The position numbers and the translations under genes were made by a program. A stretch of DNA of 64,000 nt from Pseudobutyrivibrio sp. UBA1225 (GTDB lineage: Bacteria; Bacillota; Clostridia; Lachnospirales; Lachnospiraceae): assembly GCA_002309345.1 (NCBI GenBank), contig DBWZ01000094.1, forward strand, positions 13,950 through 77,949. Reading direction: 5' to 3'. The notes under the pieces are model-generated. The model ran no database searches. It saw only the letters and a list, made by a program, of their open reading frames with translations, and was not told where the DNA came from. Numbering within the stretch: position 1 is the first letter of the stretch; each line of letters begins with the position of its first letter. Below, piece by piece: positions 1,604-31,869 of the stretch.

Positions 1604-1647
1604 AAGCAGACGATGATGTCACTAACAGGCATCTCGTCTGCTTTTTT
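1604..1647 (+). terminator. Intrinsic terminator after nrdD, possibly also a leader attenuator for the next gene
   Basis: Stem AAGCAGACGA (1604-1613) / TCGTCTGCTT (1634-1643) with an inner stem, followed by a T6 run. Confidence 0.75.
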
Positions 1648-1726
1648 CTCTATAGGCAATTATTTACAGCAATTTAGTTTTGCAAAGCAAAACTCTTTCT
1701 TAACTTACTTTTTGGGGGAGGTTGCT

Positions 1727-4306
1727 ATGGCAGCATTCGAAAAGATACTATCAGGAATTCCACAGATGGATGAGGCTCTAGACTACATACGATTGGGGGA
1801 TAACGTAGTCTTTAGAGTATCTACTTTAGATGAATTCAAGTTTTTTTTGAATCCATATGTGGAGCAGGCAAAGATTGATAAACGAAGAATAATATACTTT
1901 AGATTTGCAAGCCACGAGCCATTAGTTCAGGATTGCCCTGAGATTAAAAAATGCGAAATTCCTTTGTCTCATCGTTTTGAAAATTTTACGGTGGACATCC
2001 ACAATATTATTGCTGAAGAGGGATATGATGCATTCTATATCTTCGACTGTTTATCTGAGTTGCAGGCGGCGTGGGCGACTGATTTAATGATGGGCAATTT
2101 TTTCAAGGTTACTTGTCCGTTTTTATTTACGCTAGATACAGTGGCTTATTTTCCGGTGCTTAGAGGTAAGCATTCTGTCCACGCAATTAACAAAATCAAG
2201 AACACAGCTCAGGTATTTATAGATGTTTATTCCGACGATAAAAACATCTACGTTAGACCAGAGAAGGTTTGGAACAGGAGTGATGAAAAGATGCTGCTGC
2301 CCCATGTCTATGACAGGGACACAGGGGATTTTTATCCGATTTTGGATGGAGTAAAGGCGAGCAGATTTTATCAGATCCTTGGTAAGATGCAAAGATCACA
2401 AAGGGAGCAGCATTCAGATTATTGGGATAGGTTTTTTAATCAAGCCAAGAGCTTGTATGAGCAGGGACAGGATATAAAGGATTACGCCGATAAGATGTGC
2501 AATATCATGATGACCCGGGACGAGAAAATGCGTCAGATGGTGAAGAGCAACTTTACACCGGAGGATTATTTTGAAGTCAGAGAGCATATGATTGGCACAG
2601 GAATGATTGGTGGAAAATCCTGCGGTATGCTTCTGTCTAGGGCAATAGTGCGCAACAAGCTGCCGCAGACCTATGACAATATTGAACCGCATGATTCTTT
2701 TTACATTGGTTCAGATGTTTATTACACCTATATAGTTGATAACAATTTCTGGGATTTACGTGTAAAGCAAAGGACGGAGGAGGGGTTCTTTTCTCTGGCC
2801 AAACAGTTTTCTGACAAGCTGATAAATGGAGTTTTTAACGAAGCGATTCGGGATGAGTTTAGAGATATTATTGACTATTATGGACAGGACCCTTATATAG
2901 TTCGTTCGAGTAGTATTCTTGAGGATGGATTCGGCAACGCCTTTGCCGGAAAATACGAATCTGTTTTTTGTGTCAATCGCGGTACTGAAGAGGAACGTTT
3001 GGAGGAATTCGAAAATGCGGTAAGAACTGTCTACGCTAGTTCAATGAATCTTTCTGCGCTAGATTACCGAAAAAGAAGAGGCCTAGAGAAGCGTGATGAG
3101 CAGATGGCGCTGTTGGTCCAAAGAGTGTCCGGTTCTTACTATGATAATTACTTCATGCCTTGTGCTGCAGGTGTAGGCTATTCCTATAGTCCGTACAAAT
3201 TCATAAAGGATATAGATCAGTCCAAAGGAATGCTTCGCCTTGTTATGGGACTTGGAACCTCTGCAGTTGATAGGACCGAGGGCTCATATCCACGTTTAGT
3301 TAGCCTAGCTGCACCTGACAAAACCGTATATACGAATTCCGCTGACATGCATAAGTTTTCGCAAAGAAAAATTGAGGTGGTTGATACAAAGGAGAGATGC
3401 TTAAAGCAGCTTGAGGTAAGCCAGCTGCTGCCAACATTATCCTTCTATCTTAAAACTATGATGTTAGATCACGATTATGATGTCGAAAGCCGCTTGCGTG
3501 AGACAGGAAGAAACACGGAGGTAATGTTTGTATCCTGTAGAGGGCTTGTAAAAAGGTCAGAAATTATAGGAGCATTAAGGGATATAATGGCATGCATTCA
3601 AGATGAATATCAATATCCTGTCGATATAGAATATGCTATTAATCTTTCGGAAAATGATGAGTACATGATAAATCTACTGCAGTGTCGTCCTTTGCAGGTC
3701 TATAAAGATTTGGGGGAAGTATCTATTCCAAAGAACTTGGCGAAAGAACAGATATTATTGGAAAGCTACGGAGCCTCTATGGGCCTTTCTAGGCAGGTGA
3801 AGCTAGATTTGATTGTCTATGTAGATCCTATTGCCTATTACAATATGCCACACTACGAAAAAGTCAAGGTGGCACAGTTAATCAGCAAGGTGAATTGGTA
3901 TAGTCCTACTAAGGATAAGCATATGTTTTTGATGTCTCCAGGAAGACTTGGCACATCATCTCCAGAGCTGGGAGTGCCAACTTCATTTGCAGATATAAGC
4001 GGATTTGAAGCAATCTGCGAGATAGAAGAAAAGAAGGCAGGCTACAATCCTGAGCTATCCTACGGTAGTCATATGTTTCAAGATTTGGTGGAGCAGGATA
4101 TACTTTACACTGCTGTCTTTAGCAATGCGGAGCGAACTATATTTAACCCAGACATACTTAAGTCAGTTAGTGCTAAAAACATCACACACACCTTTGAGGG
4201 AGGTGACGAGCTGAAGGATATAGTGCAAGTATATGATGTTTCCCAGTTAGATTGCGAAATGTACAACGATATTAAAGAGGAACATTTCCTTATATATTTC
4301 AAATAA
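1727..4306 (+). CDS. PEP/pyruvate-binding (PPDK_N, ATP-grasp) domain protein with RecA/KaiC-like N-terminus
   Basis: Motifs IGGKSCGM, VRSSSILEDGFGNAFAGKYES, MALLVQ, DIEYA, LLQCRP; start moved to ATG 1727 after the GGGGGAGG SD. Confidence 0.8.
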   Translation: MAAFEKILSGIPQMDEALDYIRLGDNVVFRVSTLDEFKFFLNPYVEQAKIDKRRIIYFRFASHEPLVQDCPEIKKCEIPLSHRFENFTVDIHNIIAEEGYDAFYIFDCLSELQAAWATDLMMGNFFKVTCPFLFTLDTVAYFPVLRGKHSVHAINKIKNTAQVFIDVYSDDKNIYVRPEKVWNRSDEKMLLPHVYDRDTGDFYPILDGVKASRFYQILGKMQRSQREQHSDYWDRFFNQAKSLYEQGQDIKDYADKMCNIMMTRDEKMRQMVKSNFTPEDYFEVREHMIGTGMIGGKSCGMLLSRAIVRNKLPQTYDNIEPHDSFYIGSDVYYTYIVDNNFWDLRVKQRTEEGFFSLAKQFSDKLINGVFNEAIRDEFRDIIDYYGQDPYIVRSSSILEDGFGNAFAGKYESVFCVNRGTEEERLEEFENAVRTVYASSMNLSALDYRKRRGLEKRDEQMALLVQRVSGSYYDNYFMPCAAGVGYSYSPYKFIKDIDQSKGMLRLVMGLGTSAVDRTEGSYPRLVSLAAPDKTVYTNSADMHKFSQRKIEVVDTKERCLKQLEVSQLLPTLSFYLKTMMLDHDYDVESRLRETGRNTEVMFVSCRGLVKRSEIIGALRDIMACIQDEYQYPVDIEYAINLSENDEYMINLLQCRPLQVYKDLGEVSIPKNLAKEQILLESYGASMGLSRQVKLDLIVYVDPIAYYNMPHYEKVKVAQLISKVNWYSPTKDKHMFLMSPGRLGTSSPELGVPTSFADISGFEAICEIEEKKAGYNPELSYGSHMFQDLVEQDILYTAVFSNAERTIFNPDILKSVSAKNITHTFEGGDELKDIVQVYDVSQLDCEMYNDIKEEHFLIYFK

Positions 4307-4310
4307 TACT

Positions 4311-5207
4311 TTAGACAGGGGCTTGTAGGTTATTAAAGTAATCTACTATAGCCCCTTTTAATGCGTTTGCTTCGGCGCTTAAAATATTATCCTTGTTGTA
4401 TACAATATAGAGCTTTTTTACTAACCATTCTTCTTTGAAATGCACAATCTTTAACTTATCGGATTTGTTCTTCTTGGCCAGATATTCTAAGCTCATTCCT
4501 AGTGCATAGTTTTCTTCAGCCATGGAATGAATCAGATGAATATCGGAGGTCTCTAGTATTATGTTTGGAAATTCTACTGGCTCGTCAAAGCTATACAGCT
4601 GATTTAGGCTGGTTGTAGATTTGGCGTCCTTCACTACCATAGGTTCTCCACTTATTTCAGAAAAAGATACAGAATTTCTTTTGGCAAGAGGATGATTTTT
4701 GTTTACCACTAAACAAAATGGCTCACTGCACAGTTGTTCATAGCCAAAATAATGCGGATTGAATGGTCCAGGAATAATGCCAAGCTCAACCTTGTGTTTC
4801 TTTATTTTTTCAAGGATATAGTCATCTGTAAATTCCTTCAAATTGATTTGAATTTCCGGAAAGCTATCATGGAACTTTTTGAAGAAAGTCGCAGGTATCA
4901 GTTGCGGGAAATCGTAGGAACAAAAGATAGAGACAGTTTTTATTGGTCGTTGACTTTTAAATAATCTGTCGGTTATCAATTCATATTCTTCGAGGATGTT
5001 TTTTGCGTGAATGGATAAACGTGCAGCTTCATTAGTGGGAACAATCCTATTATGTTTATGTTCAAACAGATTTGTTCCTAATTCTTTTTCTAAAGCGGCA
5101 ATAGTTTTGCTAATACCTTGGGGAGTCACAAATAAATTTGAAGCAGCCTTTGAGATGCTTTTAGTAGAATAAACTTCTAGAAAGTATGCCAGTTGACGTT
5201 GATTCAT
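4311..5207 (-). CDS. LysR-family transcriptional regulator
   Basis: N-terminal HTH MNQRQLAYFLEVY..SISKAASNLFVTPQGISKTIAALEKELGTNLF plus LysR substrate domain; start 5207 after a GGAGG SD. Confidence 0.92.
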   Translation of the reverse strand: MNQRQLAYFLEVYSTKSISKAASNLFVTPQGISKTIAALEKELGTNLFEHKHNRIVPTNEAARLSIHAKNILEEYELITDRLFKSQRPIKTVSIFCSYDFPQLIPATFFKKFHDSFPEIQINLKEFTDDYILEKIKKHKVELGIIPGPFNPHYFGYEQLCSEPFCLVVNKNHPLAKRNSVSFSEISGEPMVVKDAKSTTSLNQLYSFDEPVEFPNIILETSDIHLIHSMAEENYALGMSLEYLAKKNKSDKLKIVHFKEEWLVKKLYIVYNKDNILSAEANALKGAIVDYFNNLQAPV

Positions 5208-5238: not shown

Positions 5239-5277
5239 AAAAAGAAAAGCGCATGGAAAAAACTCCATGCGCCTTTG
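5239..5277 (-). terminator. Leader terminator/attenuator upstream of lysR
   Basis: Minus strand CAAAGGCGCATGGAG-TTTT-TTCCATGCGCTTTTCTTTTT, lying between promoter and start codon. Confidence 0.65.
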
Positions 5278-5320: not shown

Positions 5321-5419
5321 GTAACTTCAACCAAATGGTTTATCAGATAAATTAAACATCTGCTTTTAAATTGTTAGATTTAATGATATAAATTACTCAA
5401 CAAGAAAACAAGCAGCTAA

Positions 5420-5458
5420 GAACAAAGGCGTTCACACAAGATGTGTGGGCGCCTTTTT
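5420..5458 (+). terminator. Leader terminator/attenuator upstream of the ridA-dehydrogenase operon
   Basis: 15-bp stem AAAGGCGTTCACACA / TGTGTGGGCGCCTTT plus TT; a competing hairpin GAAC-AAAGGC-GTTC overlaps the 5' arm. Confidence 0.7.
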
Positions 5459-5492
5459 CAGATTTATATTAAAGGAAAGTGAGGTAATTGTT

Positions 5493-5885
5493 ATGGAACT
5501 GAAGAGAACAAACTATAGCTCAGGTGCACCGCTAGAAGAAAAGGTTGGTTACTCAAGAATGGTAAAGATTGGACCTTATATAAAAATAGGTGGAACCACA
5601 TCAGTCCAAGGTGATGGAACAGTCTATGGAGAAGATGCATACGAGCAAACAAAATACGTTTTAGACAAGCAGATCAAATTACTTGAACAGGCTGGTGCAA
5701 CAAAAGAGGATGTCTTTTCAGTTTTTATTTATACAACAGACATCACAGCTGGTGGAAAGATTTGTGAGGCATATTCAGAATTCTTTAAAGAAGTCAAACC
5801 ACTAAACACAATGGTTGAAATAACAAGATTAAATCGACCTACACAAATCGTAGAAATAGAAATGGAAGCAATGCTTACAGATTAA
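5493..5885 (+). CDS. RidA/YjgF/UK114-family imine/enamine deaminase-like protein
   Basis: GYSRMVKIG..IGGTT..AYEQT..F.EVKP.NTMVEITRL..VEIEMEA pattern; start 5493 after GAGGT. Confidence 0.85.
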   Translation: MELKRTNYSSGAPLEEKVGYSRMVKIGPYIKIGGTTSVQGDGTVYGEDAYEQTKYVLDKQIKLLEQAGATKEDVFSVFIYTTDITAGGKICEAYSEFFKEVKPLNTMVEITRLNRPTQIVEIEMEAMLTD

Positions 5886-5907
5886 ATAGAAGGTATAGGA
5901 GGTCAAG

Positions 5908-6216
5908 ATGAGCAGAATAGTAGAACATCCGATACTAGAAAAGCAGGAAGAAAAGAAGTTAGTATCATTTGAATTTGATGGTAAAGAATATAAAGGGTAT
6001 GAAGGGGAACCAATTGCCATAGCGCTTAAAGCAAACGGAGTGATGATCCATCGGTACACAAAAAAGGAACATAAGCCAAGAGGTTTGTTTTGTGCCATTG
6101 GAAGATGCACCGATTGTGTAATGGTTGTAGATGGAGAGCCTAATATTAGAACCTGTGTGACACCTCTTAAGGAGGGAATGGTAGTTCAGACACAGAACGG
6201 TGTGGAAGCCATGTAG
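5908..6216 (+). CDS. 2Fe-2S subunit (HcnA/SoxA-N-like) of a flavin amine/amino-acid dehydrogenase
   Basis: RGLFCAIGRCTDCVMVVDG..IRTC motif. Confidence 0.85.
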   Translation: MSRIVEHPILEKQEEKKLVSFEFDGKEYKGYEGEPIAIALKANGVMIHRYTKKEHKPRGLFCAIGRCTDCVMVVDGEPNIRTCVTPLKEGMVVQTQNGVEAM

Positions 6217-6259
6217 TAGCAGAGGAAAGAAATTATAGATTATCAGGGAGGTATGTTTA

Positions 6260-7837
6260 ATGGATAGATATGAAGTGATAGTTGTAGGTGCTGGACCATC
6301 TGGACTATCAGCAGCAATAGAAGCAGCTAAGCGAGGACTTAAAGTAATTGTGTTTGATGAAAACGACAAGCCGGGTGGTCAGTTATTTAAACAGATTCAT
6401 AAGTTTTTTGGCTCGAAGGAGCATCATGCAAAGATTAGAGGCTTTCGAATAGGCGAGGAATTGTTAAAGGAAGCTGCAGAGGTTGGAGTACAGGTAGAGC
6501 TTGGGGCGACAGTAATTGGATTATATTCTGATAAGGAAGTAAGTGTAAGGATTGGCGACACAATAAAGCATTACAAGGGTGACACAGTAATTGTTGCCAC
6601 CGGTGCAGCCGAAAACATGGTTACCTTCCCAGGCTGGACTTTACCGGGAGTTATTGGCGCTGGCGCAGCACAGACCATGATGAACATACATGGAATTAAG
6701 CCAGGCAAAAAAGTTTTGATGCTAGGCTCCGGAAATGTAGGATTAGTAGTTTCATTCCAGCTTCTTCAGGCGGGATGTGAGGTGGTGGCATTAGTAGATG
6801 CGGCACCAAAGATTGGCGGATATGGCGTTCACGCAGCTAAGGTTGCCAGATGTGGTGTTCCATTCTTTTTATCCCACACAATAAAAGAAGCACATGGAAC
6901 TGATTATCTTACAGGTGTAACTATCAACGAAGTTGATGATAAGTTTAGACCGATTGAAGGAACAGAAAAGTATTTTGAAGTAGATACTATCTGCATGGCA
7001 GTTGGACTATCGCCGATGTCCCAGTTGCTTAAGATGGCAGGCTGCAAGATGGAGGACAATCCAAAGCGAGGTGGTCAGGTTCCGATCGTGGATGAGTATG
7101 GCGAGACATCTGTTTCTGGTGTGTTTGCAGCAGGTGATGTATCAGGAATTGAAGAAGCATCATCAGCGATGATTGAAGGCAAGATGGCAGGCGTTTGTGT
7201 TTGCGGATATCTGGGCTACATATCAGACGAAGAGATGCAATCAGAGATTCAAAAGCTGGAAAAGGATTTGGATAGCTTAAGACAGGGAATGTTTGCACCA
7301 AAGAATAGAGGAAAGGCTATTGAAAAAACAGAAGAGGGAATTGATATTTCCATGAACCTTTTGAAGAAAGGATTTGTTGCAGACGATGAGATAGAACGAT
7401 TCCCTGGTGTTGTTCATAAGGTTGGCATACATCCAGTGATGGAATGTACGCAAAACATTCCTTGTAATCCATGTCAGGATGCCTGCAGTAAAGGATGTAT
7501 ATCAATTGGAAATAATATTACATGCCTGCCATTCATCAAAGAGGAAAGCAAATGTGTTAACTGTGGAATGTGTGTAGCGAGTTGTTCTGGCCAAGCAATC
7601 TTTTTGGTAGATGAGGACTGTGGAGATGGCACAGCAACAATCACTCTTCCATATGAGTTTTTACCTTTACCAGAGGTTGGTGATAAGGGCTTTGGGTTAT
7701 CAAGAAATGGCGAAAAGCTATGCGAGGCACAGATTGTATCAGTCAAGAGTATGAAAGCGTTTGACCATACAAATCTTTTAACTATGAAGGTTCCAAAAGA
7801 ATATGCAATGAAGGCAAGATTTTTTAAATGCAGTTAG
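6260..7837 (+). CDS. FAD/NAD(P)-dependent oxidoreductase subunit (HcnB/SoxA-like) with C-terminal 4Fe-4S ferredoxin domain
   Basis: GAGPSG, ATGA, second dinucleotide motif GSGNVG, FAAGD; C-terminal CTQNIPCNPCQDAC and CVNCGMCVASC. Confidence 0.87.
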   Translation: MDRYEVIVVGAGPSGLSAAIEAAKRGLKVIVFDENDKPGGQLFKQIHKFFGSKEHHAKIRGFRIGEELLKEAAEVGVQVELGATVIGLYSDKEVSVRIGDTIKHYKGDTVIVATGAAENMVTFPGWTLPGVIGAGAAQTMMNIHGIKPGKKVLMLGSGNVGLVVSFQLLQAGCEVVALVDAAPKIGGYGVHAAKVARCGVPFFLSHTIKEAHGTDYLTGVTINEVDDKFRPIEGTEKYFEVDTICMAVGLSPMSQLLKMAGCKMEDNPKRGGQVPIVDEYGETSVSGVFAAGDVSGIEEASSAMIEGKMAGVCVCGYLGYISDEEMQSEIQKLEKDLDSLRQGMFAPKNRGKAIEKTEEGIDISMNLLKKGFVADDEIERFPGVVHKVGIHPVMECTQNIPCNPCQDACSKGCISIGNNITCLPFIKEESKCVNCGMCVASCSGQAIFLVDEDCGDGTATITLPYEFLPLPEVGDKGFGLSRNGEKLCEAQIVSVKSMKAFDHTNLLTMKVPKEYAMKARFFKCS

Positions 7838-7848
7838 GAGGGAGAAGG

Positions 7849-8169
7849 ATGAGCGAAGTAATTGATAGATCAATTGATATAGGTGAGTTTATCCCGCAAC
7901 CAGATGACGATATGATTATTTGCCGTTGCGAAGAAATCACCAAAGGTGAAATAAGAAGAGCAGTTCATGATGGGATGTGGACGATGACAGAAATAAGACG
8001 ATATTTGCGAACAGGAATGGGGCTATGTCAGGGTCAGACTTGCTCAAGACTTGTCAAAGGAATTGTGGCAAGAGAGTTGGCGATTAATCCGAATGAGCTG
8101 GAACCAGCAACTGCCCGCTCTCCTATGAGACCGACAGAGATGAAAGTACTTGGCAAGGAGGTGAGCTGA
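7849..8169 (+). CDS. BFD-like 2Fe-2S subunit
   Basis: ICRCEEIT..RTGMGLCQGQTC..RSPMRP motif. Confidence 0.85.
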   Translation: MSEVIDRSIDIGEFIPQPDDDMIICRCEEITKGEIRRAVHDGMWTMTEIRRYLRTGMGLCQGQTCSRLVKGIVARELAINPNELEPATARSPMRPTEMKVLGKEVS

Positions 8170-8170
8170 A

Positions 8171-9310
8171 ATGTCAACAAATAAAGCGGATGTAATAGTA
8201 GTTGGCGGCGGCATTATTGGATGTGCCACAAGCTATTACCTAAGAAAAAGAGGAAAATCAGTAATTGTATTAGAGGCAAGCGACAACATTGGAAATGGTG
8301 GCTCCTCTAGAAACGGCGGTGGTGTTAGACAATCAGGTAGAGATCCACGAGAACTGCCACTTGCAATGTATGGAATCAAGGAGCTTTGGCCAGAGCTTTC
8401 CAAGGAATTAGGTGTGGATTGTGAATATCACAAAGATGGCAATCTTAGACTTGGAAAGAATGAAAAGCACAAAGAAATCCTTCAGGGACTCACAGATAGA
8501 GCCGTGGCCTGCGGCTTGGATGTCAGGATGATTGACGCAGATGAAATAAAAGAAATCAATCCTTATCTTTCGGATGAAGTTACATGCGCTAGCTGGTGTC
8601 CGACAGATGGACATGCAAATCCGATGGTGACAACTCTAGCGTTTTATAAAAAAGCTAGAGAGATAGGGGTTCGATTTTTTACAGGCGAGAAGGTTACAAA
8701 GCTTCGCAAAATAAAAGGAAAGCTTAGAGAGGTATACACTGAGGAAAACGTCTATGAAGGAGACTATGTTGTAGTTGCAGCAGGATATGAATCAAGAGAG
8801 ATTCTTGGAACTGTAGGTGTAGATGTTCCGATGCATCAGGAGTTATGCGAGTGCCTCGTAACCGAGGCGGAGCCACATATGTTTGATCAGATGCTTGGAA
8901 CTGCGGAGGCAGATTTCTACGGACATCAATCTGATCACGGTTCATTTGTATTCGGCGGAATGTCGGGACTTGAGTTGAATAACAAGGACACCGGTCCTAA
9001 AAACTCTCCAAGCAATGCTTCAATTACATCACCTTGTATTTGCCGAGGTATCATGAAATACTTCCCAGCATTGGAAAACGCCAAGATAGTTAGAACTTGG
9101 GCTGGTTACTTAGATATTTGTCAGGATGGTGTTCCCGTCCTAGGTTTTGTGGATGAAGTTCCTGGTCTAGTGGTTGCATGTGCATTTTCTGGTCACGGAT
9201 TTGGAATTGCCCCAGCTGTTGGTGAGCAGTTGGCAAAACTTATTATTGATGGAGTCACATCCGTTGATATATCGGGTCTGCGATATGGCAGATTCAAGGC
9301 AAAGATTTAA
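8171..9310 (+). CDS. DAO/SoxB-family FAD-dependent amine/amino-acid dehydrogenase catalytic subunit
   Basis: GGGIIG, SSRNGG, DGHANP, RTWAG..D..PVLG, FSGHGFGIAPAVG. Confidence 0.88.
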   Translation: MSTNKADVIVVGGGIIGCATSYYLRKRGKSVIVLEASDNIGNGGSSRNGGGVRQSGRDPRELPLAMYGIKELWPELSKELGVDCEYHKDGNLRLGKNEKHKEILQGLTDRAVACGLDVRMIDADEIKEINPYLSDEVTCASWCPTDGHANPMVTTLAFYKKAREIGVRFFTGEKVTKLRKIKGKLREVYTEENVYEGDYVVVAAGYESREILGTVGVDVPMHQELCECLVTEAEPHMFDQMLGTAEADFYGHQSDHGSFVFGGMSGLELNNKDTGPKNSPSNASITSPCICRGIMKYFPALENAKIVRTWAGYLDICQDGVPVLGFVDEVPGLVVACAFSGHGFGIAPAVGEQLAKLIIDGVTSVDISGLRYGRFKAKI

Positions 9311-9326
9311 TAAAGGTTAGGAGGAA

Positions 9327-9710
9327 ATGCTTATGAAGGTTTCAATCGAGGAATTATCAAGGGTAGAAATAATCACACGTGAAGCTAAGGTAATTGAGCT
9401 TACGGAAAACTTTTCCAGATTTGGAATAACCGGAATGACAATTTACGACGCAAAAGGATGCGGAGTTCAGTTGGGAACTCAGGAATACGAAAGCGATAAA
9501 AATGAAGTTCCACAGCTTCTTTCTAAGCAGGTAATCATGGTTGTGTTACCAACTAGAGAAGTTGATAGCTTTATTGAATTTGTAGAGAAATCCCTCTATA
9601 CAGGTCACATTGGTGATGGAAAGATTTTTGTTACTCCAGTGACAAACGCAATTAGAGTTCGTACTGGTGAAGAAGGAACGGACGCCTTGAAAGAAGGTAC
9701 ATTGGATTAA
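9327..9710 (+). CDS. P-II family signal-transduction protein (atypical T-loop)
   Basis: GITGMT..GCGVQ, B-loop TGHIGDGKIFV, C-loop IRVRTGE. Confidence 0.88.
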   Translation: MLMKVSIEELSRVEIITREAKVIELTENFSRFGITGMTIYDAKGCGVQLGTQEYESDKNEVPQLLSKQVIMVVLPTREVDSFIEFVEKSLYTGHIGDGKIFVTPVTNAIRVRTGEEGTDALKEGTLD

Positions 9711-9721
9711 GGAGGTGTTCT

Positions 9722-11119
9722 ATGGTTGAAAAGAAAATAGGGCTCGGAAGTGTAATAGCTACTGGAGTAGGACTTGTAGTAGCAAGTAGTTGTTTATTAT
9801 CACTTGGAATAGGCGCAGGAAGCATTGGAACACCATTTATAATTACGATGACCATTGCTTGTATAGTGAATATTTTGACGCTATTATCCGTTGCAGAATT
9901 AAATTCACTTATGCCGAATCTAACAGGTGGATTAGCACAGTTTTCTCTGGCAGGAGTAGGACCATTCATCACAATTATTTGTATGGTTGGCGGATATCTC
10001 TTGTGTAACTCCCTTGCAGGATCAGTTGAGGGAGCTGTATTCGGAAATACGTTTTCCACAATGTTTAGTGATTACAACATCCCATCATGGGTATTTACAG
10101 CAGTTTTAGTTACATTTCTTATGATTACAAATCTAAATGGTGTAGATGTGTTTATCAAGGTTCAGGATTTTGTAGCCTACGCACTTATTGCATCACTTGC
10201 GATTATGGGAATTCTAGGAATGCTTGGAATCGGAACAGGTGAGATTGTTAGCCAGCCGGCTGTGGTGGCTTCTGATTTTAAAAGCGTAACCGGCTTATGT
10301 GGTCTTGCATTTTTCCTATTTGTAGGTGGTGAATATGTAATACCTCTTACAAAGAATTGCAAAAACTCAAAAAGAGATATTCCACTTGGAATGATTCTAA
10401 GTATGCTCATCATTCTTGTAATGCAAATCTTCATGGTGTTGGGATTCAAGAACTACACACAGTGGGATGAGTTGGCAGCAAGTACCACACCGCAGATTTT
10501 ATATGGACGTATGCTACTTGGACCACTTGGAAGATATTGGATGCTAGTTGTCACATTATTGGCGGCTATTAGTTCCGTAAATACGATAATGAATTCCCTT
10601 TCGTATATCCTAATGGGAATGTCTAAGATAGAGCTTCTTCCAGTATTCTTTCAGAAGACAAACAAAAAAGGTGCTCCATATGTGGGAATAGTGTTAGAAG
10701 CAGTGTTCTTCTTGTTCTTTAACATAACAGGTCTTTCATCCACAGATTCTATATCGTTTATGATTGCGGTTTTGGCAATCCTTTGGATGATTAGTTACAT
10801 TGTTACAAACGTAGATGTACTTTTGCTTCGACGAAGATTACCGAATGCACCTAGAAATTTTAAATTGCCATTTGGAGCGATGGTTCCAGTTCTTGCGATT
10901 TTGGGTTCTGTATACATGATATACAGCATCGATCCAAGTATGGAAGTGAAGTTATCTCTGTATAAGATAGTTGGTGTTACCATAGCAGTTCTTGCTATAT
11001 ATTCGTTCCTTTGGATTAAGCTTAGGGTTAAGAAACCTTTATTTAAGCCTTATGCGATAAAAGAAGTTATGGCAATGGAAAATGAACTATATTTGGAATA
11101 CCACAAAAAAGCAAGCTGA
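9722..11119 (+). CDS. APC-family amino acid/amine permease
   Basis: About 12 hydrophobic segments, TGVGLVVASS TM1 motif, C-terminal RRRLPNAPRNFKLP motif. Confidence 0.88.
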   Translation: MVEKKIGLGSVIATGVGLVVASSCLLSLGIGAGSIGTPFIITMTIACIVNILTLLSVAELNSLMPNLTGGLAQFSLAGVGPFITIICMVGGYLLCNSLAGSVEGAVFGNTFSTMFSDYNIPSWVFTAVLVTFLMITNLNGVDVFIKVQDFVAYALIASLAIMGILGMLGIGTGEIVSQPAVVASDFKSVTGLCGLAFFLFVGGEYVIPLTKNCKNSKRDIPLGMILSMLIILVMQIFMVLGFKNYTQWDELAASTTPQILYGRMLLGPLGRYWMLVVTLLAAISSVNTIMNSLSYILMGMSKIELLPVFFQKTNKKGAPYVGIVLEAVFFLFFNITGLSSTDSISFMIAVLAILWMISYIVTNVDVLLLRRRLPNAPRNFKLPFGAMVPVLAILGSVYMIYSIDPSMEVKLSLYKIVGVTIAVLAIYSFLWIKLRVKKPLFKPYAIKEVMAMENELYLEYHKKAS

Positions 11120-11170
11120 AATAGTGGGAGTTAATTGTAAATACATATAGATAAAAAGGAGGATGGCATT

Positions 11171-12313
11171 ATGGAAAATACAAAGATTGATTTATTATAT
11201 TTAAGCGAGCCAGATATGATTGAGGCTGGTGTAAACGATGTTGTAGCATGTACTTCCTGTATGGAAGAGCTTCTAGTTACTCTGGATAAAGGTGATTATT
11301 TAATGGGTGGAGAAAATGGAAACTCTCACGGCACAATGATTACCTTCCCGGACAATCCTATTTTCCCTAACATGCCAAAGAGCGGTCCTGATAGAAGATT
11401 TATGGCGATGCCTGCTTATGTTGGTGGTGAGACTGCAATGGCTGGAATGAAATGGTATGGTTCAAACGTTGAAAACAGAGAGAAAGGGCTTCCTAGATCA
11501 ATCCTTATGGTAATGTTGAATGATAAGGATACAGGTGCACCACTTTCCCTTATGTCTGCAAACCTACTATCTGCCTATAGAACATCTGGTATTCCAGGTG
11601 CAGGTGTAAAGAACTTAGCCGTTAAGGATGCAAAGGTTCTTGGAATTGTTGGACCAGGTGTAATCAACATTACAGCAATTGAAACCTTCGCAGCACTTAG
11701 ACCTACTCTTGACACACTAAAGATTAAAGGTAGAGGTAAGGCATCTATTGATAGATGTATTGAATTCGTAAAAACGAATCTTCCTCAGTTTACAACAATT
11801 CAGGTTGTGGATACTCTTGAAGAATGTGTTAGAGATTCAGATATTTTGAGCTTTGCCACATCAACATCAATGGGCATGGATAGAAGTCAGTATCCATTTG
11901 TAAAGGAAGAATGGATTAAGCCAGGTGCATTATTCTGTGTGCCAGGTTCGTGTGACTTTTCAGATGAATATATCTGCAGCGGAAAGGCAAAGCTGGTTTG
12001 CGACAACATTAAGTTGTACGAAGCATGGGCGGAGGAGTATCCATATCCAACATATAATCAGATTTATATTCCAGGATGCTTGTGGCTCGATTTGGTTCAT
12101 GACGGAAAGCTTTCTAAGGATAAGATTATCAATCTTGGTGCAATACTTGCTGGCAAGGAGGAAGGTAGAACCTCAGATGATGAAGTTATAATCTACTCAG
12201 TAGGTGGTATGCCGGTTGAGGATGTGGCTTGGGGCAAGAAATGCTACGAAAAAGCCCTCGAAAAGGGAATCGGTACCAAGCTCAACCTATGGGATAAGCC
12301 ATATTTATTCTAG
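11171..12313 (+). CDS. Ornithine cyclodeaminase/mu-crystallin family protein
   Basis: RFMAMPAY, MKWYGSN, GAPLSLM..LSAYRTS, GIVGPG, YSVGGMPVEDVAW. Confidence 0.82.
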   Translation: MENTKIDLLYLSEPDMIEAGVNDVVACTSCMEELLVTLDKGDYLMGGENGNSHGTMITFPDNPIFPNMPKSGPDRRFMAMPAYVGGETAMAGMKWYGSNVENREKGLPRSILMVMLNDKDTGAPLSLMSANLLSAYRTSGIPGAGVKNLAVKDAKVLGIVGPGVINITAIETFAALRPTLDTLKIKGRGKASIDRCIEFVKTNLPQFTTIQVVDTLEECVRDSDILSFATSTSMGMDRSQYPFVKEEWIKPGALFCVPGSCDFSDEYICSGKAKLVCDNIKLYEAWAEEYPYPTYNQIYIPGCLWLDLVHDGKLSKDKIINLGAILAGKEEGRTSDDEVIIYSVGGMPVEDVAWGKKCYEKALEKGIGTKLNLWDKPYLF

Positions 12314-12436: not shown

Positions 12437-12532
12437 ATGGAATTTCAACAGGTTATAGATGCTAGGCAGAGTGTAATAAGCTTTAATGGGAATCAGGTTT
12501 CAGATATTGATGAGATAGCCAAGTTTATTTAA
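12437..12532 (+). pseudogene. 31-codon stub resembling a nitroreductase N-terminus
   Basis: AAGGAG SD, then MEFQQVIDARQSVISFNGNQVSDIDEIAKFI*, resembling the nitroreductase start motif (I..RRS.R.F....V..E.I). Confidence 0.45.
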
Positions 12533-12547
12533 AGTAAGTTGTATGTT

Positions 12548-12576
12548 AAGGGTCAGGATGTATTTCCTGACCTTTT
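12548..12576 (+). terminator. Intrinsic terminator
   Basis: AAGGGTCAGGA-TGTATT-TCCTGACCTTTTT. Confidence 0.75.
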
Positions 12577-12594: not shown

Positions 12595-12666
12595 AAAAAT
12601 GTAAAGGAAACTTGACATAAATCTCTCGAGGTGATAGAATCAAAAATGTAAAGGAAACTTGTCATA
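12595..12666 (+). promoter_or_regulatory. SigmaA promoter flanked by a 25-bp direct repeat (likely XRE operators)
   Basis: TTGACA (12612)-N17-TG.TAGAAT (12635); AAAAATGTAAAGGAAACTTG(A/T)CATA at 12595 and 12642. Confidence 0.75.
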
Positions 12667-28641: not shown

Positions 28642-28710
28642 TACATATTAAAATAAGAGAAGGGTTGTGTGACGAGAAAGCACGACCTCATAGAAAGGAA
28701 TTACTTTTAT

Positions 28711-31700
28711 ATGTACAACAAGGTAGACGCAAGCTTAAATTTTGTTGAGCGCGAAAAACAGGTGCTCAAATTCTGGCAGGACAACGATATCTTCCAGAAA
28801 TCAATGGATTCAAGAAAAGAAGGAGAGACTTACACATTCTACGATGGACCTCCTACAGCAAATGGCAAACCTCATATCGGTCACGTAGAGACTCGAGCTA
28901 TCAAGGACATGATTCCAAGATACCAGACAATGAAGGGCAAATATGTACCCCGTAAGGCTGGTTGGGATACACATGGTCTTCCAGTAGAGCTTGAGGTAGA
29001 AAAGTTGCTTGGCCTCAACGGTAAAGAACAAATCGAAAACTACGGTATGGAGCCTTTCATCAAAAAATGTAAGGAATCCGTATGGAAATATAAGGGAATG
29101 TGGGAGGACTTCTCAGGAACAGTTGGTTTCTGGGCCGATATGGACAATCCTTACATCACATATGATGACAATTTCATCGAGTCAGAGTGGTGGGCACTCA
29201 AGACAATCTGGGACAAGAAGCTTCTTTACAAGGGATTCAAAATCGTTCCTTACTGTCCTCGTTGTGGTACTCCGCTCTCAGCTCAAGAGGTTGCTCAGGG
29301 TTACAAGACGGTCAAGGAGCGTTCAGCAATCGCTCGTTTCAAAATCAAAGGTGAGGATGCATACTTCCTTGCTTGGACAACTACACCATGGACACTTCCA
29401 TCCAACCTTGCACTTTGCGTAAATCCAATCGAAACTTACATCAAAGTCAAGGCTGCAGATGGCTATACATACATCCTTGCAGAGGCTCTTGCAGACAAGG
29501 TTCTTTCAAAGCTTGCCACAGAAGAAGGCGCAAAGGCATACGAAGTACTTGAAACCTACAAGGGTACAGATCTTGAGTACAAGGAATATGAGCCACTCTT
29601 TGAATGTGCAGGTATTGCCGCAGAAAAGCAGCACAAGAAGGCTCACTTCGTAGTTTGTGATGATTACGTTACCATGTCAGATGGTACTGGTATCGTACAT
29701 ATCGCTCCTGCATTTGGTGAGGACGATGCCAAGGTTGGTCGCAAGTATGATCTTCCATTTGTACAGTTCGTAAATGGCAAGGGTGAGCTCACAGAAGAGA
29801 CTCCTTATGCAGGTCAGTTCGTTAAGGATGCCGATCCAAACGTTCTCAAGGATTTGGATGCCAAGGGACAGCTTTTCGAGGCTCCTAAGTTCGAGCACGA
29901 GTATCCACACTGCTGGAGATGCGACACTCCACTTATCTACTACGCTAGAGAATCATGGTTCATCAAGATGACCGAGGTCAAGGATGACCTGATTAAAAAT
30001 AACAACACTGTAAATTGGATTCCAGATTCAATCGGTAAGGGACGTTTTGGAGATTGGCTCGAGAACGTTCAGGACTGGGGTATCTCTCGTAACCGTTACT
30101 GGGGCACTCCACTCAATATCTGGGAATGTCCAGATTGTGGCAAGCAGATTTCAATCGGTAGCCGCAAGGAGTTAGCAGAGCTTTCTGGTCGCGCAGACGC
30201 AGAGTCTATCGAGCTTCATCGTCCATACATCGATGAGGTTACATGCACTTGCCCAGATTGCGGCGGTACAATGAAGCGTGTGCCAGAAGTTATCGACTGC
30301 TGGTTTGATTCAGGAGCTATGCCATTTGCTCAGCATCACTATCCATTCGAAAACAAGGAGATTTTTGAGCAGCAGTTCCCAGCCAAGTTTATTTCCGAAG
30401 CTGTTGACCAGACTCGTGGTTGGTTCTACTCGTTGATGGCTGAGTCAACCTTGCTTTTCAACAAGGCTCCTTATGAAAATGTAATCGTCCTTGGTCACGT
30501 TCAAGATGAAAACGGTCAAAAGATGTCCAAGTCAAAGGGCAATGCAGTTGATCCATTCGAAGCTCTTGAAAAGATGGGTGCAGATGCAATCAGATGGTAT
30601 TTCTACACATCTTCAGCACCATGGATCCCAAAGAGATTTGGTGAAAATGCAGTTATGGAAGGCCAGAGAAAGTTCCTTGGAACACTTTGGAATACATATG
30701 CTTTCTATATTTTATATGCGAACATTGATGAGTTTGATCCTACCAAGTATGAGCTTGACTTTAACAAGCTTGCAGTTATGGACAAATGGATCCTTTCTCG
30801 TCTCAATTCGGCAATCAAGGCTGTAGATGAGAACCTTGACGCATACAAGATTCCAGAGGCAGCAAGAGCACTTGATGAGTTCGTAGACGATTTGTCTAAC
30901 TGGTATGTACGCCGTTGTCGCGATAGATTCTGGGCAAAGGGTATGGAGCAGGACAAGATTAATGCTTACATGACACTTTACACTTGCCTTAAGGATATTG
31001 CACTTGCAGCAGCACCAATGATTCCATTTATGACAGAGGAAATCTATCAGAACATGGTTCGCTCAGTAGACAAGACAGCTCCTGAGTCAATCCACCTTTG
31101 TGATTTCCCTGCATACAATGAGCAGTTTATTGACAAGAAGCTCGAGGAAGATATGGATGAGCTTCTCAAGATTGTTGTTCACGGTCGTGCATGTAGAAAT
31201 ACAGCAGCCATCAAGAACCGTCAGCCAATCGGTCAGATGTACATCAAGGCTGAGCACGAGCTTGATGATATGTATGTTTCTATCATCGAGGATGAGCTTA
31301 ATGTTAAAAAGGCTACATTTACAGATGATGTTTCATCATTTACATCATACAGCTTCAAGCCACAGCTTCGTACAGTAGGACCTAAGTACGGCAAGTTCCT
31401 CGGTGGCATCCAAAAAGCACTTGCCTCACTTGATGGCAATGCAGCATACGCAGATCTCAAGGCAAATGGGGTATTAAGATTGCCAGAGGTTGATGCTTCT
31501 ATCGAGCTTGCAGAGGAAGACTTACTTATCTCTATGGCTCAGACAGAGGGCTTTGTAGCAGATGGCGACAACTATGTAACAGTAGTTCTCGATACAAATC
31601 TTACAGAAGAGCTTCTTGAGGAAGGCTTTGTAAGAGAGCTTGTTTCGAAGATTCAGACAATGCGTAAGGAAGCAGATTTCGAAGTTATGGATCGAATCAC

Positions 31701-31869
31701 AGTTTCTTACGAAGGATCTGATAAAATAAATAGTATCTTTGAGGCAAACAAGGATGAAATCGCAGGTGAAGTCCTTGCGGATGAGATAGTTGTGGGCGCT
31801 GAAGGCACTTACAGCAAAGACTGGAACATCAACGGAGAGAAGGTTAAGTTATCAGTTACAAGGATTTAA
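28711..31869 (+). CDS. ileS: Isoleucine--tRNA ligase, type 2
   Basis: PHIGH, KMSKS, GWDTHGLP, PYCPRCGTPLS, DWGISRNRYWG; start 28711. Confidence 0.96.
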   Translation: MYNKVDASLNFVEREKQVLKFWQDNDIFQKSMDSRKEGETYTFYDGPPTANGKPHIGHVETRAIKDMIPRYQTMKGKYVPRKAGWDTHGLPVELEVEKLLGLNGKEQIENYGMEPFIKKCKESVWKYKGMWEDFSGTVGFWADMDNPYITYDDNFIESEWWALKTIWDKKLLYKGFKIVPYCPRCGTPLSAQEVAQGYKTVKERSAIARFKIKGEDAYFLAWTTTPWTLPSNLALCVNPIETYIKVKAADGYTYILAEALADKVLSKLATEEGAKAYEVLETYKGTDLEYKEYEPLFECAGIAAEKQHKKAHFVVCDDYVTMSDGTGIVHIAPAFGEDDAKVGRKYDLPFVQFVNGKGELTEETPYAGQFVKDADPNVLKDLDAKGQLFEAPKFEHEYPHCWRCDTPLIYYARESWFIKMTEVKDDLIKNNNTVNWIPDSIGKGRFGDWLENVQDWGISRNRYWGTPLNIWECPDCGKQISIGSRKELAELSGRADAESIELHRPYIDEVTCTCPDCGGTMKRVPEVIDCWFDSGAMPFAQHHYPFENKEIFEQQFPAKFISEAVDQTRGWFYSLMAESTLLFNKAPYENVIVLGHVQDENGQKMSKSKGNAVDPFEALEKMGADAIRWYFYTSSAPWIPKRFGENAVMEGQRKFLGTLWNTYAFYILYANIDEFDPTKYELDFNKLAVMDKWILSRLNSAIKAVDENLDAYKIPEAARALDEFVDDLSNWYVRRCRDRFWAKGMEQDKINAYMTLYTCLKDIALAAAPMIPFMTEEIYQNMVRSVDKTAPESIHLCDFPAYNEQFIDKKLEEDMDELLKIVVHGRACRNTAAIKNRQPIGQMYIKAEHELDDMYVSIIEDELNVKKATFTDDVSSFTSYSFKPQLRTVGPKYGKFLGGIQKALASLDGNAAYADLKANGVLRLPEVDASIELAEEDLLISMAQTEGFVADGDNYVTVVLDTNLTEELLEEGFVRELVSKIQTMRKEADFEVMDRITVSYEGSDKINSIFEANKDEIAGEVLADEIVVGAEGTYSKDWNINGEKVKLSVTRI

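Follow-up and report, generated by a model that had tools for sequence, protein, structure and literature searches.

What does an anaerobe of the gut or rumen do with an amine dehydrogenase whose relatives feed respiratory chains, and what is such an enzyme doing in one operon with a P-II signal protein and a permease? The question is raised by a stretch of 64,000 nucleotides from Pseudobutyrivibrio sp. UBA1225 (contig DBWZ01000094.1; hereafter the window), where eight open reading frames (ORFs) on the + strand occupy positions 5493-12313 with intergenic gaps of 1-51 nt. The coordinates and gene content initially annotated for this interval were confirmed, with Pfam domains matching all eight genes: a Rid (YjgF/L-PSP) protein, the gamma, alpha, delta, and beta subunits of a flavin and iron-sulfur dehydrogenase, a P-II signal protein, an APC-superfamily permease, and a protein of the ornithine cyclodeaminase (OCD)/mu-crystallin fold. 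Our preferred reading, to which we give a probability of roughly 0.5, is that these genes form a conserved catabolic module tied to nitrogen status that would harvest nitrogen from an imported amino compound. Most likely this compound would be an N-substituted amino acid (a secondary amine or a cyclic imino acid), because the nearest relatives of both enzymes act on proline, sarcosine, N-methyltryptophan, opines, or N-substituted glutamate.

The dehydrogenase complex and its SbnB-like partner

The presumed catalytic amine dehydrogenase is beta (8171-9310, + strand; Pfam DAO, 2.5e-71), a DAO-fold FAD protein that among solved structures best matches the P. horikoshii L-proline dehydrogenase (L-ProDH) beta subunit (1y56_B, 5.6e-43), with L-amino-acid deaminases, glycine oxidase, and SoxB following. 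In NCBIfam it stays under every cut-off, with ThiO, SolA, and SoxB as the top models and DadA-type models scoring lower, and L-ProDH, SoxB, ThiO, and SolA all oxidize glycine or N-alkyl or cyclic amino acids. The accompanying subunits are gamma, a [2Fe-2S] protein (5908-6216, +; Fer2_4, 9.9e-32), alpha (6260-7837, +; Pyr_redox_2, 1.3e-38, plus a weak Fer4 match), and delta, a BFD-like [2Fe-2S] protein with a sarcosine-oxidase A3 domain (7849-8169, +; Fer2_BFD, 2.1e-13; SO_alpha_A3, 1.3e-10), for which an alternative start codon at 7828 overlaps alpha. These three align with successive parts of the NCBIfam SoxA model (residues 14-102, 170-488, and 523-593, respectively) and jointly cover its N-terminal 600 residues, while alpha also matches the structures of PH1363 and SoxA.

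Apart from a longer spacer in delta, the cofactor motifs listed for the family of L-ProDH, D-hydroxyproline dehydrogenase (D-HypDH), opine dehydrogenase (opine DH), and HCN synthase (Watanabe 2015) are present in the complex and invariant over 53-58 orthologues. In gamma, C62-x4-C67-x2-C70-x12-C83 is unchanged in 53/53 sequences and fits the published motif C-x4-C-x2-C-x11-12-C (Watanabe 2015). Delta, here a separate BFD-like protein, has C25-x-C27-x32-C60-x4-C65 in all 55 of 55 sequences, its spacer being 32 residues long as against 15-20 in the second [2Fe-2S] motif of the family (C-x-C-x15-20-C-x4-C). Beta begins with an ADP-binding GxGxxG at residue 12 (G12GGIIG), of which G12 and G14 are invariant, and R308-T-W310 corresponds to the R-x-W putative FMN site, with R308 and W310 invariant in 14 diverse orthologues. 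Alpha has two dinucleotide sites: the first, G10xGxxG (G10AGPSG) with D33E34, is invariant and is the FAD site, and the second, an invariant G156xGxxG (G156SGNVG, 156-161) with an invariant Asp (D180) 19 residues on, has the pattern typical of NAD(H) or ADP binding. The C-terminal domain of alpha gave weak ferredoxin and HdrA matches only, and its nine invariant cysteines (C396/402/405/409/413 and C432/435/438/442, spaced C396-x5-C-x2-C-x3-C-x3-C and C432-x2-C-x2-C-x3-C) suggest that it probably holds two [4Fe-4S] clusters. The motif set thus described points to two [2Fe-2S] centers, to a pair of ADP-binding sites on alpha, and, on beta, to an FMN motif. Judged by architecture and motifs, the complex is a member of the L-ProDH/D-HypDH/opine-DH/HCN-synthase family, and the likeness to opine, hydroxyproline, and archaeal proline dehydrogenases and to HcnABC proposed in the initial annotation holds up, both in the match of beta and in the invariant cofactor motifs. 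The same annotation held that the substrate could not be told from the sequence, which is still the case.

The last gene of the operon (11171-12313, +; OCD_Mu_crystall, 4.7e-67) encodes the OCD-like protein, a putative SbnB-like NAD-dependent dehydrogenase. It scores 555.6 bits against the NCBIfam model NF004848 (cut-off 362), for whose NCBI name, "tyramine oxidase subunit B," no source publication was found in the searchable literature, and we did not use that name as evidence. The label may be misleading, as the conserved carboxylate-binding positions described below argue against a tyramine substrate. This naming concerns NF004848 and the public annotations of P0166, P0211, P0217, and P0223, and public annotations call the last gene "ornithine cyclodeaminase."

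The nearest solved relative of the OCD-like protein is SbnB (4m54, 2e-29), at a sequence similarity of 26-30%, and P. putida OCD matches at 4.6e-7 only. With SbnB it shares the segments DRxxAMPxxxGG...GxKWxGS and the absence of the cyclodeaminase Asp segment: I216-G-A-D219-G of AfAlaDH aligns with a five-residue gap, and Asp219 (Asp228 in P. putida OCD) is important for every step of cyclodeaminase catalysis. The OCD equivalog models of NCBIfam give 48-114 bits against cut-offs of 350-417. The deamination initially annotated for this protein, if read as cyclodeaminase activity, therefore did not survive, the catalytic Asp being deleted and SbnB being nearest. SbnB cleaves an N-substituted glutamate, a secondary amine, into 2-oxoglutarate and a primary amine. 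Our protein is not an SbnB orthologue, the likeness being one of fold and motif, to judge from 156.5 bits against a cut-off of 326.9 in the SbnB equivalog TIGR03944, and none of the surveyed loci has a gene for an SbnA-like partner or PLP enzyme. It also weakly matches Pyr2C/Pip2C reductases, iminosuccinate reductase, and archaeal alanine dehydrogenase. R76, K94, and R137 are invariant in the OCD-like proteins, at positions that we take, from P. putida OCD work, to bind the alpha-carboxylate in this family. Since the cyclodeaminase Asp is missing and SbnB is closest, an enzyme that works as a dehydrogenase at the C-N bond of an N-substituted amino acid seems more likely than a cyclodeaminase.

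The first gene (5493-5885, +; Ribonuc_L-PSP, 1.3e-18) had been credited with RidA-type imine hydrolysis. Against the NCBIfam RidA model TIGR00004 its product scores 45 bits (cut-off 106), and its Asn105 aligns with the essential Arg of RidA structures (PH0854, 5yu2), the Arg105 that RidA requires for imine hydrolysis (Niehaus 2015). Among 40 distinct cluster-linked Rid orthologues, position 105 is Cys, Phe, or Asn and never Arg (38/38 informative rows). With Asn in place of the catalytic Arg105, the proposed activity was not upheld.

A recurrent module with P-II-transporter pairs

The synteny survey of gut anaerobes that the initial annotation had proposed was carried out, and the module recurs across gut and rumen anaerobes. 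An alignment of the OCD-like protein, scanned against a single genome for each species, retrieved relatives in at least 593 species genomes, among Lachnospiraceae (Roseburia hominis, Blautia, Anaerostipes, Agathobacter, Lachnospira, and Coprococcus), Eubacteriaceae (Acetobacterium, E. aggregans, and Pseudoramibacter), and elsewhere in Ruminococcus, Oscillospiraceae, Eggerthellaceae, Olsenella, Sharpea, and Treponema. In Lachnospiraceae and Eubacteriaceae, both beta and the OCD-like protein have many close homologues, which bear generic names only. The OCD-like protein of the window is 99% identical to that of a rumen metagenome-assembled genome (locus L010) and 97% identical to that of P. xylanivorans MZ8 (L022). 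Contigs from bovine gut metatranscriptomes span every gene of the operon, which favors its being transcribed in that habitat; they speak for presence and say nothing on regulation.

Synteny was counted by tblastn-based annotation in 48 species loci for which the OCD-like gene served as anchor and no less than 7 kb of flank was available on either side. Beta was found in 39/48, gamma, alpha, and delta in 38/48 each, P-II in 36/48, and the APC permease in 33/48, as was the P-II/APC pair; an AraC regulator accompanies 26 of the 48 loci, the Rid protein 23, a LysR regulator 11 (in the same divergent position as in the window), AmtB 11, and an iron alcohol dehydrogenase (Fe-ADH) 7. The two commonest orders are gamma-alpha-delta-beta-OCD-AraC-PII-APC and LysR(-)-Rid-gamma-alpha-delta-beta-PII-APC-OCD, the latter being that of the window. 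In the reciprocal scan of 33 beta-anchored metagenome loci with enough flank, gamma, alpha, and delta were present in 33/33 and the OCD-like gene in 22/33; the remaining 11, with the four dehydrogenase genes and an AraC gene only, seem to belong to a single abundant species of the human gut. All four dehydrogenase genes hence make up an obligate unit, and the OCD-like gene is a frequent, not universal, neighbor. Because the gene set is repeated over these loci, we regard it as a conserved module and no chance neighborhood.

Clustering of the neighboring proteins gave no recurrent extra families beyond artefacts. As separate observations, a Cytidylate_kin2 (PF13189) gene recurs beside the APC permease or the OCD-like gene (L001 6085-6708, L048, L056, and L075), and in loci of the Ruminococcus type beta and the OCD-like gene are repeatedly separated by a small gene of the nitroreductase family. 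The beta gene itself, at 8171-9310 of the window and in many loci (e.g., L025 3105-4418 and L043), contains a long stop-free antisense frame of up to ~437 codons in relatives, which displaces the real gene in longest-ORF callers and is probably a compositional artefact.

The P-II gene (9327-9710, +; Pfam P-II, 5.3e-21, with PDB matches) is followed after 11 nt by the APC-superfamily permease (9722-11119, +; AA_permease_2, 1.7e-30), and in the surveyed clusters P-II always adjoins a transporter, be it an APC permease, a Pot-like ABC importer, or AmtB. A second type of cluster, in Ruminococcus, Oscillospiraceae, and Treponema, reads gamma-alpha-delta-beta-(nitroreductase)-OCD-(GDH)-(Rid)-AmtB-PII, and a further architecture consists of P-II, then a PotABCD-like importer, two OCD-like paralogues, the four dehydrogenase genes, and Fe-ADH. 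Where the OCD-like gene occurs apart from the dehydrogenase, it adjoins a canonical type I glutamine synthetase and a Liv-type ABC importer or, in another setting, an Opp-type importer and an AmtB-P-II fusion. The link to nitrogen, which the initial annotation had drawn from a single P-II gene, is supported by this synteny with P-II-transporter pairs, amtB-glnK, gdh, and glnA. For the permease itself, the NCBIfam and PDB matches were too weak to name a substrate, as it falls under every NCBIfam cut-off and the best solved matches are xCT and GkApcT.

Homology searches with P-II returned only close relatives with generic names, and we compared the T-loops of 71 distinct P-II sequences sorted by neighboring transporter (50 APC, 14 AmtB, and 7 Pot); residue numbers follow E. 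coli GlnB, and the contrast between classes is independent of the numbering. AmtB-linked proteins have Arg47-Gly48 in 14/14, whereas in APC-linked ones position 47 is V, A, I, or G and never Arg, with E44 in 50/50, Y45 in 47/50, E46 in 44/50, an acidic residue 48 in 45/50, and His85 in 50/50. The P-II of the window carries E-Y-E-S-D and no Arg47. The seven Pot-linked sequences have a T-loop insertion of 5-7 residues. The ligand residues for ATP/ADP and 2-oxoglutarate are retained in all three classes, and Q39, K58, G87, G89, K90, R101, and R103 are kept in the window P-II and its 50 APC-linked homologues, with the sole exception of Q39, replaced by E in 17 of these. The APC-linked proteins thus look like a distinct P-II subtype with a T-loop of its own, and a T-loop that varies with the neighboring transporter is what we would expect if P-II contacts that neighbor, by analogy with GlnK and AmtB. 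The Pot-linked insertion, GCGTQKGV..NTEKAVNEIKGFKT, was seen in L004/L005 (1003-1356), L108, L128, L139, L153, L156, and L162 and makes up a third T-loop class.

A shared leader hairpin and the control of the operon

The attenuator that the initial annotation had placed ahead of the operon is borne out as a structure, namely a conserved 5'-leader terminator hairpin that recurs before several units of the module. In the window it lies at 5420-5463 (+; stem 5424-5456), ~35 nt ahead of the first start codon, as an attenuator-like intrinsic terminator with a U-tract and a centroid energy of -24.2 kcal/mol. Upstream of it are a palindrome, AACCAAATGGTT (5329-5340), which occurs once in the window with none expected by chance and is likely a LysR-type binding box, and a putative extended -10-like element, TGATATAAA (5384-5392, +), whose position is kept across LysR-type loci. 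Variants of AACCAAATGGTT of the form AACyAwwTGGTT stand at the same place in all ten LysR-type loci read, and in these ten the palindrome, the -10-like element, and the hairpin keep their positions down to 55% protein identity.

AraC-type loci share this hairpin, its conserved base being CAAAGRYGUY...RCRYYUUUU. When 22 instances are aligned, 93% of the cells pair and 11/15 pairs change on both sides; slid controls pair 39-58%, and 0/500 shuffles reach the observed values, though the 22 sequences were chosen by a hairpin scan, and part of this covariation support is by construction. A covariance model built from these instances (R1) has a single match in the window, at 5420-5463 (E 2.6e-6). In 80 species loci it gave 62 gene-placed matches, and 54 of them sit 17-176 nt upstream of a module gene (Rid 16, OCD 16, gamma 14, AraC 4, P-II 2, APC 1, and LysR 1); many lie outside the seed, including all 16 ahead of the OCD-like gene. 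As the hairpin recurs before several module units, it is a 5'-leader element and not merely the terminator of the gene upstream.

AraC-type loci have an identical 17-mer, TATCGTTTTTTACAATA, ahead of the gamma unit and again ahead of the OCD unit, with the hairpin after either copy. Because hairpin and TATCGTTTTTTACAATA precede separate units, the dehydrogenase genes belong to one regulon with the OCD-AraC-PII-APC genes. TATCGTTTTTTACAATA is probably the operator of the adjacent AraC/DUF6597 regulator. Within the human-gut Lachnospiraceae loci L065-L087 it was seen 102-236 nt upstream of the gamma and OCD-like genes, with a promoter-like -10 and the hairpin after it (e.g., L067, 6234-6250 and 9790-9806; L077, 6330-6346 and 9831-9847).

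As to what acts on the hairpin, an Rfam scan of the whole 64-kb window had no match at gathering score, hence the leader belongs to none of the known riboswitch, T-box, or ANTAR-target families. Only ~25-40 nt of leader precede the hairpin, too few for a riboswitch, and control more likely lies with a protein antiterminator or with some mechanism linked to the initiation of transcription. Farther on, the window encodes an isoleucyl-tRNA synthetase (28669-31869, +), yet Rfam gave no T-box, tRNA, or riboswitch match in the 64 kb.

A divergent LysR-type regulator, not mentioned in the initial annotation, is encoded at 4311-5207 (-; HTH_1, 2.4e-16; LysR_substrate, 2.2e-26); its true start is probably the ATG at 5207, the ORF as listed extending to 5330. 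Its own leader contains a terminator-like hairpin (5245-5276, -; 14-bp stem, centroid -20.4 kcal/mol) between a TTGACT-16-TATAAT promoter match (5320-5293) and the start codon, and a weak R1 match falls at the equivalent position in L013. The regulator gene may itself be attenuated. Directly upstream of the LysR gene, at 1613-4306 (+), is a gene for a protein of 897 residues in which a PPDK_N domain (PEP/pyruvate-binding, ATP-grasp) is confined to the middle; the protein is far under all PEP-synthase cut-offs, and its N-terminal 330 residues gave no match at all.

At the other end, the sole convincing intrinsic terminator downstream of the operon (12548-12575, +; an 11-bp stem followed by a T-run) probably marks the operon's end, and the next promoter-like site beyond it, at 12612-12640, lies ahead of an unrelated HTH gene. 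Between the OCD-like gene and this terminator, an ORF of 31 codons (12438-12533, +) with a strong GAAGGAGA ribosome-binding site at first looked like a nitroreductase N-terminus; BLAST, Pfam, and tblastn all gave no support, it is not conserved even in the 97-99% identical loci, and we dropped it as probably not a gene.

What the module would do, and where it stands among known systems

Put together, the preferred catabolic reading would run as follows. The APC permease would import the substrate, and P-II, sensing ATP/ADP and 2-oxoglutarate, would gate the permease through its specialized T-loop, as GlnK gates AmtB. Beta, with its FAD and DAO fold, would oxidize a C-N bond of the substrate to an imine, with hydrolysis following, and the electrons would pass by way of FMN at the alpha/beta interface and the two [2Fe-2S] centers of gamma and delta to the FAD of alpha, and finally to NAD+ at alpha's second site, to ferredoxin through the 2x[4Fe-4S]-like domain, or to both. 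Release of ammonia, which the initial annotation also proposed, would be a further putative outcome. The SbnB-like enzyme with NAD(H) would make or break a second C-N bond, at the alpha-carbon of the amino-acid moiety, and by analogy with SbnB would release a 2-oxo acid (e.g., 2-oxoglutarate) and an amine. By turning over NAD(H), this enzyme could offset the turnover by alpha, and the anaerobe would then need no external electron acceptor; such a closed NAD(H) loop would explain both the co-regulation of the two enzymes and how an anaerobe runs an enzyme whose relatives feed respiratory chains. Transcription from the LysR-controlled promoter would respond to substrate, and the transcript would then meet the leader terminator, to be overridden by some factor.

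Several observations weigh against this catabolic reading. The potential of the amine/imine couple makes reduction of NAD+ uphill; the Rid protein, lacking the catalytic Arg, probably cannot be relied upon for imine hydrolysis; and the likeness to SbnB amounts to 26-30% similarity with a score under the SbnB equivalog cut-off. One abundant human-gut species has the four dehydrogenase genes with no OCD-like gene within 9 kb. In 11/48 loci, AmtB is the only transporter of the cluster, which would mean that there an organic substrate enters through a transporter encoded elsewhere or that the module handles ammonium or an internal metabolite.

A more specific version, which we regard as a long shot, is an "opine shuttle" independent of PLP that would move amine nitrogen straight onto 2-oxoglutarate, with a P-II-throttled APC importer and the leader attenuator serving the regulon. 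Here, the SbnB-like enzyme would use NADH to condense the imported amine with 2-oxoglutarate into an N-alkyl-L-glutamate, and the complex, resembling sarcosine and N-methylglutamate dehydrogenases, would oxidize the other C-N bond to yield L-glutamate and an aldehyde and regenerate NADH, while the P-II variant with its acidic T-loop would throttle the importer according to the 2-oxoglutarate level. In a variant of this shuttle, the NAD site and ferredoxin-like domain of alpha would make the complex an electron-confurcating or -bifurcating amine dehydrogenase.

The same two enzymes have been considered in other arrangements. They could carry out a redox-neutral conversion of a D- to an L-amino or imino acid (or between epimers), as P. 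aeruginosa DauA/DauB do, the complex oxidizing the D-form or a ring nitrogen to a 2-imino or cyclic imino acid and the OCD-fold enzyme reducing this to the L-form with the NADH of alpha. The tight co-regulation of both enzymes and the invariant NAD-type site in alpha fit such a closed NAD(H) loop, the OCD fold includes the weakly matched Pyr2C/Pip2C reductases, iminosuccinate reductase, and archaeal alanine dehydrogenase, and the heterooligomeric L-ProDH genes of Thermococcus litoralis have an OCD-fold Pyr2C reductase in their cluster. We nonetheless hold it to be unlikely, given that the OCD-like protein is nearer to SbnB than to any reductase and beta is nearest to L-proline, sarcosine, and glycine enzymes, not to D-amino-acid dehydrogenases, with DadA-type models scoring lower; moreover, racemase-like or downstream genes are absent, one racemase would suffice, and the nitrogen regulation would be left unexplained. 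Proline also figures in an alternative that would turn ornithine into proline and then P5C, through a true ornithine cyclodeaminase that releases ammonia and an archaeal-like L-ProDH complex. That the best solved match of beta is an L-ProDH beta subunit, that public annotations name the last gene "ornithine cyclodeaminase," and that opine regions of Ti plasmids also combine Oox/Nox with ocd would suit it, but we think it very improbable: the catalytic Asp (P. putida Asp228, AfAlaDH Asp219) is lost in the deletion, P. putida OCD matches at 4.6e-7 against 2e-29 for SbnB, the OCD equivalogs are far under their cut-offs, and P5C dehydrogenase appears in no surveyed locus.

The transporters and neighbors bear on two further alternatives. 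The module might run in the assimilatory, reductive direction, with NADH and/or reduced ferredoxin driving beta to reduce the imine of a 2-oxo acid and ammonium or an imported amine and the SbnB-like enzyme helping to place the nitrogen on 2-oxoglutarate, a PLP- and ATP-independent route to glutamate, possibly with flavin-based electron bifurcation. It fits the AmtB-type loci best, in that clusters of Ruminococcus, Oscillospiraceae, and Treponema have amtB-glnK, and often gdh, with no importer of organic nitrogen, and glnA or an AmtB-P-II fusion adjoins the OCD-like gene in loci that have no dehydrogenase. Imine reduction by NADH is thermodynamically favored, and alpha has an NAD-type site plus a ferredoxin-like domain. 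Most loci, however, encode an importer of organic solutes (APC or Pot-like ABC), the local regulators, LysR or AraC, are of a kind usual in catabolic operons induced by their substrate, no member of the enzyme family is known to run reductively in vivo, and a glutamine amidotransferase is not consistently present (Peptidase_C26 in 3/48 loci), all of which leaves this reading rather unlikely. An anaerobic counterpart of the Puu pathway for polyamines or primary amines, which we find distinctly unlikely, would import putrescine, spermidine, or a related amine and oxidize it to an aminoaldehyde and ammonia or a shorter amine, with the iron alcohol dehydrogenase reducing the aldehyde. PuuP-type importers belong to the APC superfamily, and the recurrent architecture that swaps the APC permease for a PotABCD-like ABC importer adds Fe-ADH directly after beta; the binding protein there is nearest to PotD, but at 258 bits against a PotD cut-off of 582, and Fe-ADH is found in 7/48 loci only. 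A PuuD-like Peptidase_C26 occurs in a few loci, while the glutamine synthetases nearby are canonical GlnA and not PuuA, and the OCD-fold partner keeps R76, K94, and R137, whose presumed carboxylate role argues for an amino-acid substrate. Gamma-glutamylation of the Puu type was likewise down-weighted, the glutamine synthetases being GlnA (569-571 bits, cut-off 429) and the C26 protein being far under the PuuD cut-off.

Among characterized enzymes, the complex resembles the archaeal dye-linked L-ProDHs (P. horikoshii PDH1, alpha4beta4, 1Y56; T. profundus and P. horikoshii, alpha-beta-gamma-delta), with which it shares, besides the matches of beta (5.6e-43) and of alpha to PH1363, the FAD in beta, a second nucleotide site in alpha, the FMN motif R-x-W, and Fe-S centers, as well as, in T. 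litoralis, clustering with an OCD-fold enzyme. The four-subunit archaeal type reportedly also has a ferredoxin-like subunit. Unlike these, the system in the window is bacterial and mesophilic, with low identity to 1Y56_B (150 bits); its SoxA-like chain is split into three proteins, alpha has the ferredoxin-like domain fused to it, the genes come with P-II, a transporter, and a leader attenuator, and its partner is SbnB-like and not a Pyr2C reductase. D-HypDH (alpha4beta4gamma4), opine DH (OdhABC; NoxAB/OoxAB), and HcnABC have the same three domain types, two GxGxxG motifs, the C-x4-C-x2-C-x11-12-C of gamma, a C-x-C...C-x4-C center of different spacing, and the R-x-W of beta, and in opine regions, too, there is a gene of the OCD family along with a dedicated importer. 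However, these enzymes belong to aerobes and deliver their electrons to the respiratory chain or to dyes, whereas the window system adds the 2x[4Fe-4S]-like domain and has its BFD-like center on a separate protein, with a 32-residue spacer as against 15-20.

The SoxBDAG sarcosine oxidase and N-methylglutamate dehydrogenase, which oxidize the N-alkyl bond of an N-substituted amino acid, are alike in that gamma, alpha, and delta align with SoxA and beta with SoxB (PDB 2GAG); in contrast, the system described here has no folate-binding (GCV_T) part of SoxA, no SoxD, and no SoxG, scores far under the Sox cut-offs, and has, from its motifs, Fe-S clusters that are absent from Sox. The OCD-like protein differs from SbnB in belonging to its own subfamily, NF004848, and in a presumably catabolic, nitrogen-related context, not siderophore synthesis. 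Like GlnK beside AmtB, the P-II of the window keeps the canonical ligand residues and is encoded beside a transporter, AmtB itself occurring in sister loci, but its neighbor is an APC permease and its T-loop, E44-Y45-E46-x-[E/D]48, has no Arg47 of the kind that enters the AmtB pore.

No publication on this cluster was found in the searchable full-text literature, which leaves out most subscription journals. The enzyme family is known, by architecture and motifs. New relative to the literature found are the form it takes in anaerobic Firmicutes, where the SoxA-like chain is split and alpha bears a ferredoxin-like domain, the SbnB-like regulon partner, the embedding in nitrogen-assimilation neighborhoods, the P-II subtype linked to an APC permease, and the shared leader attenuator.

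Nitrogen acquisition by the dominant butyrate-producing Firmicutes of gut and rumen is poorly understood. This module is embedded among genes for P-II, AmtB, glutamate dehydrogenase (GDH), and glutamine synthetase (GS), and its proteins carry generic or unsupported annotations only. The locus raises the questions of how an anaerobe disposes of the electrons from an amine dehydrogenase with relatives that feed respiratory chains, whether P-II controls APC-type permeases through a re-tooled T-loop, and what reads the conserved leader terminator ahead of each unit of the regulon. Identifying the substrate would give metabolic models of the gut and rumen a new nitrogen source or a new route of nitrogen assimilation.

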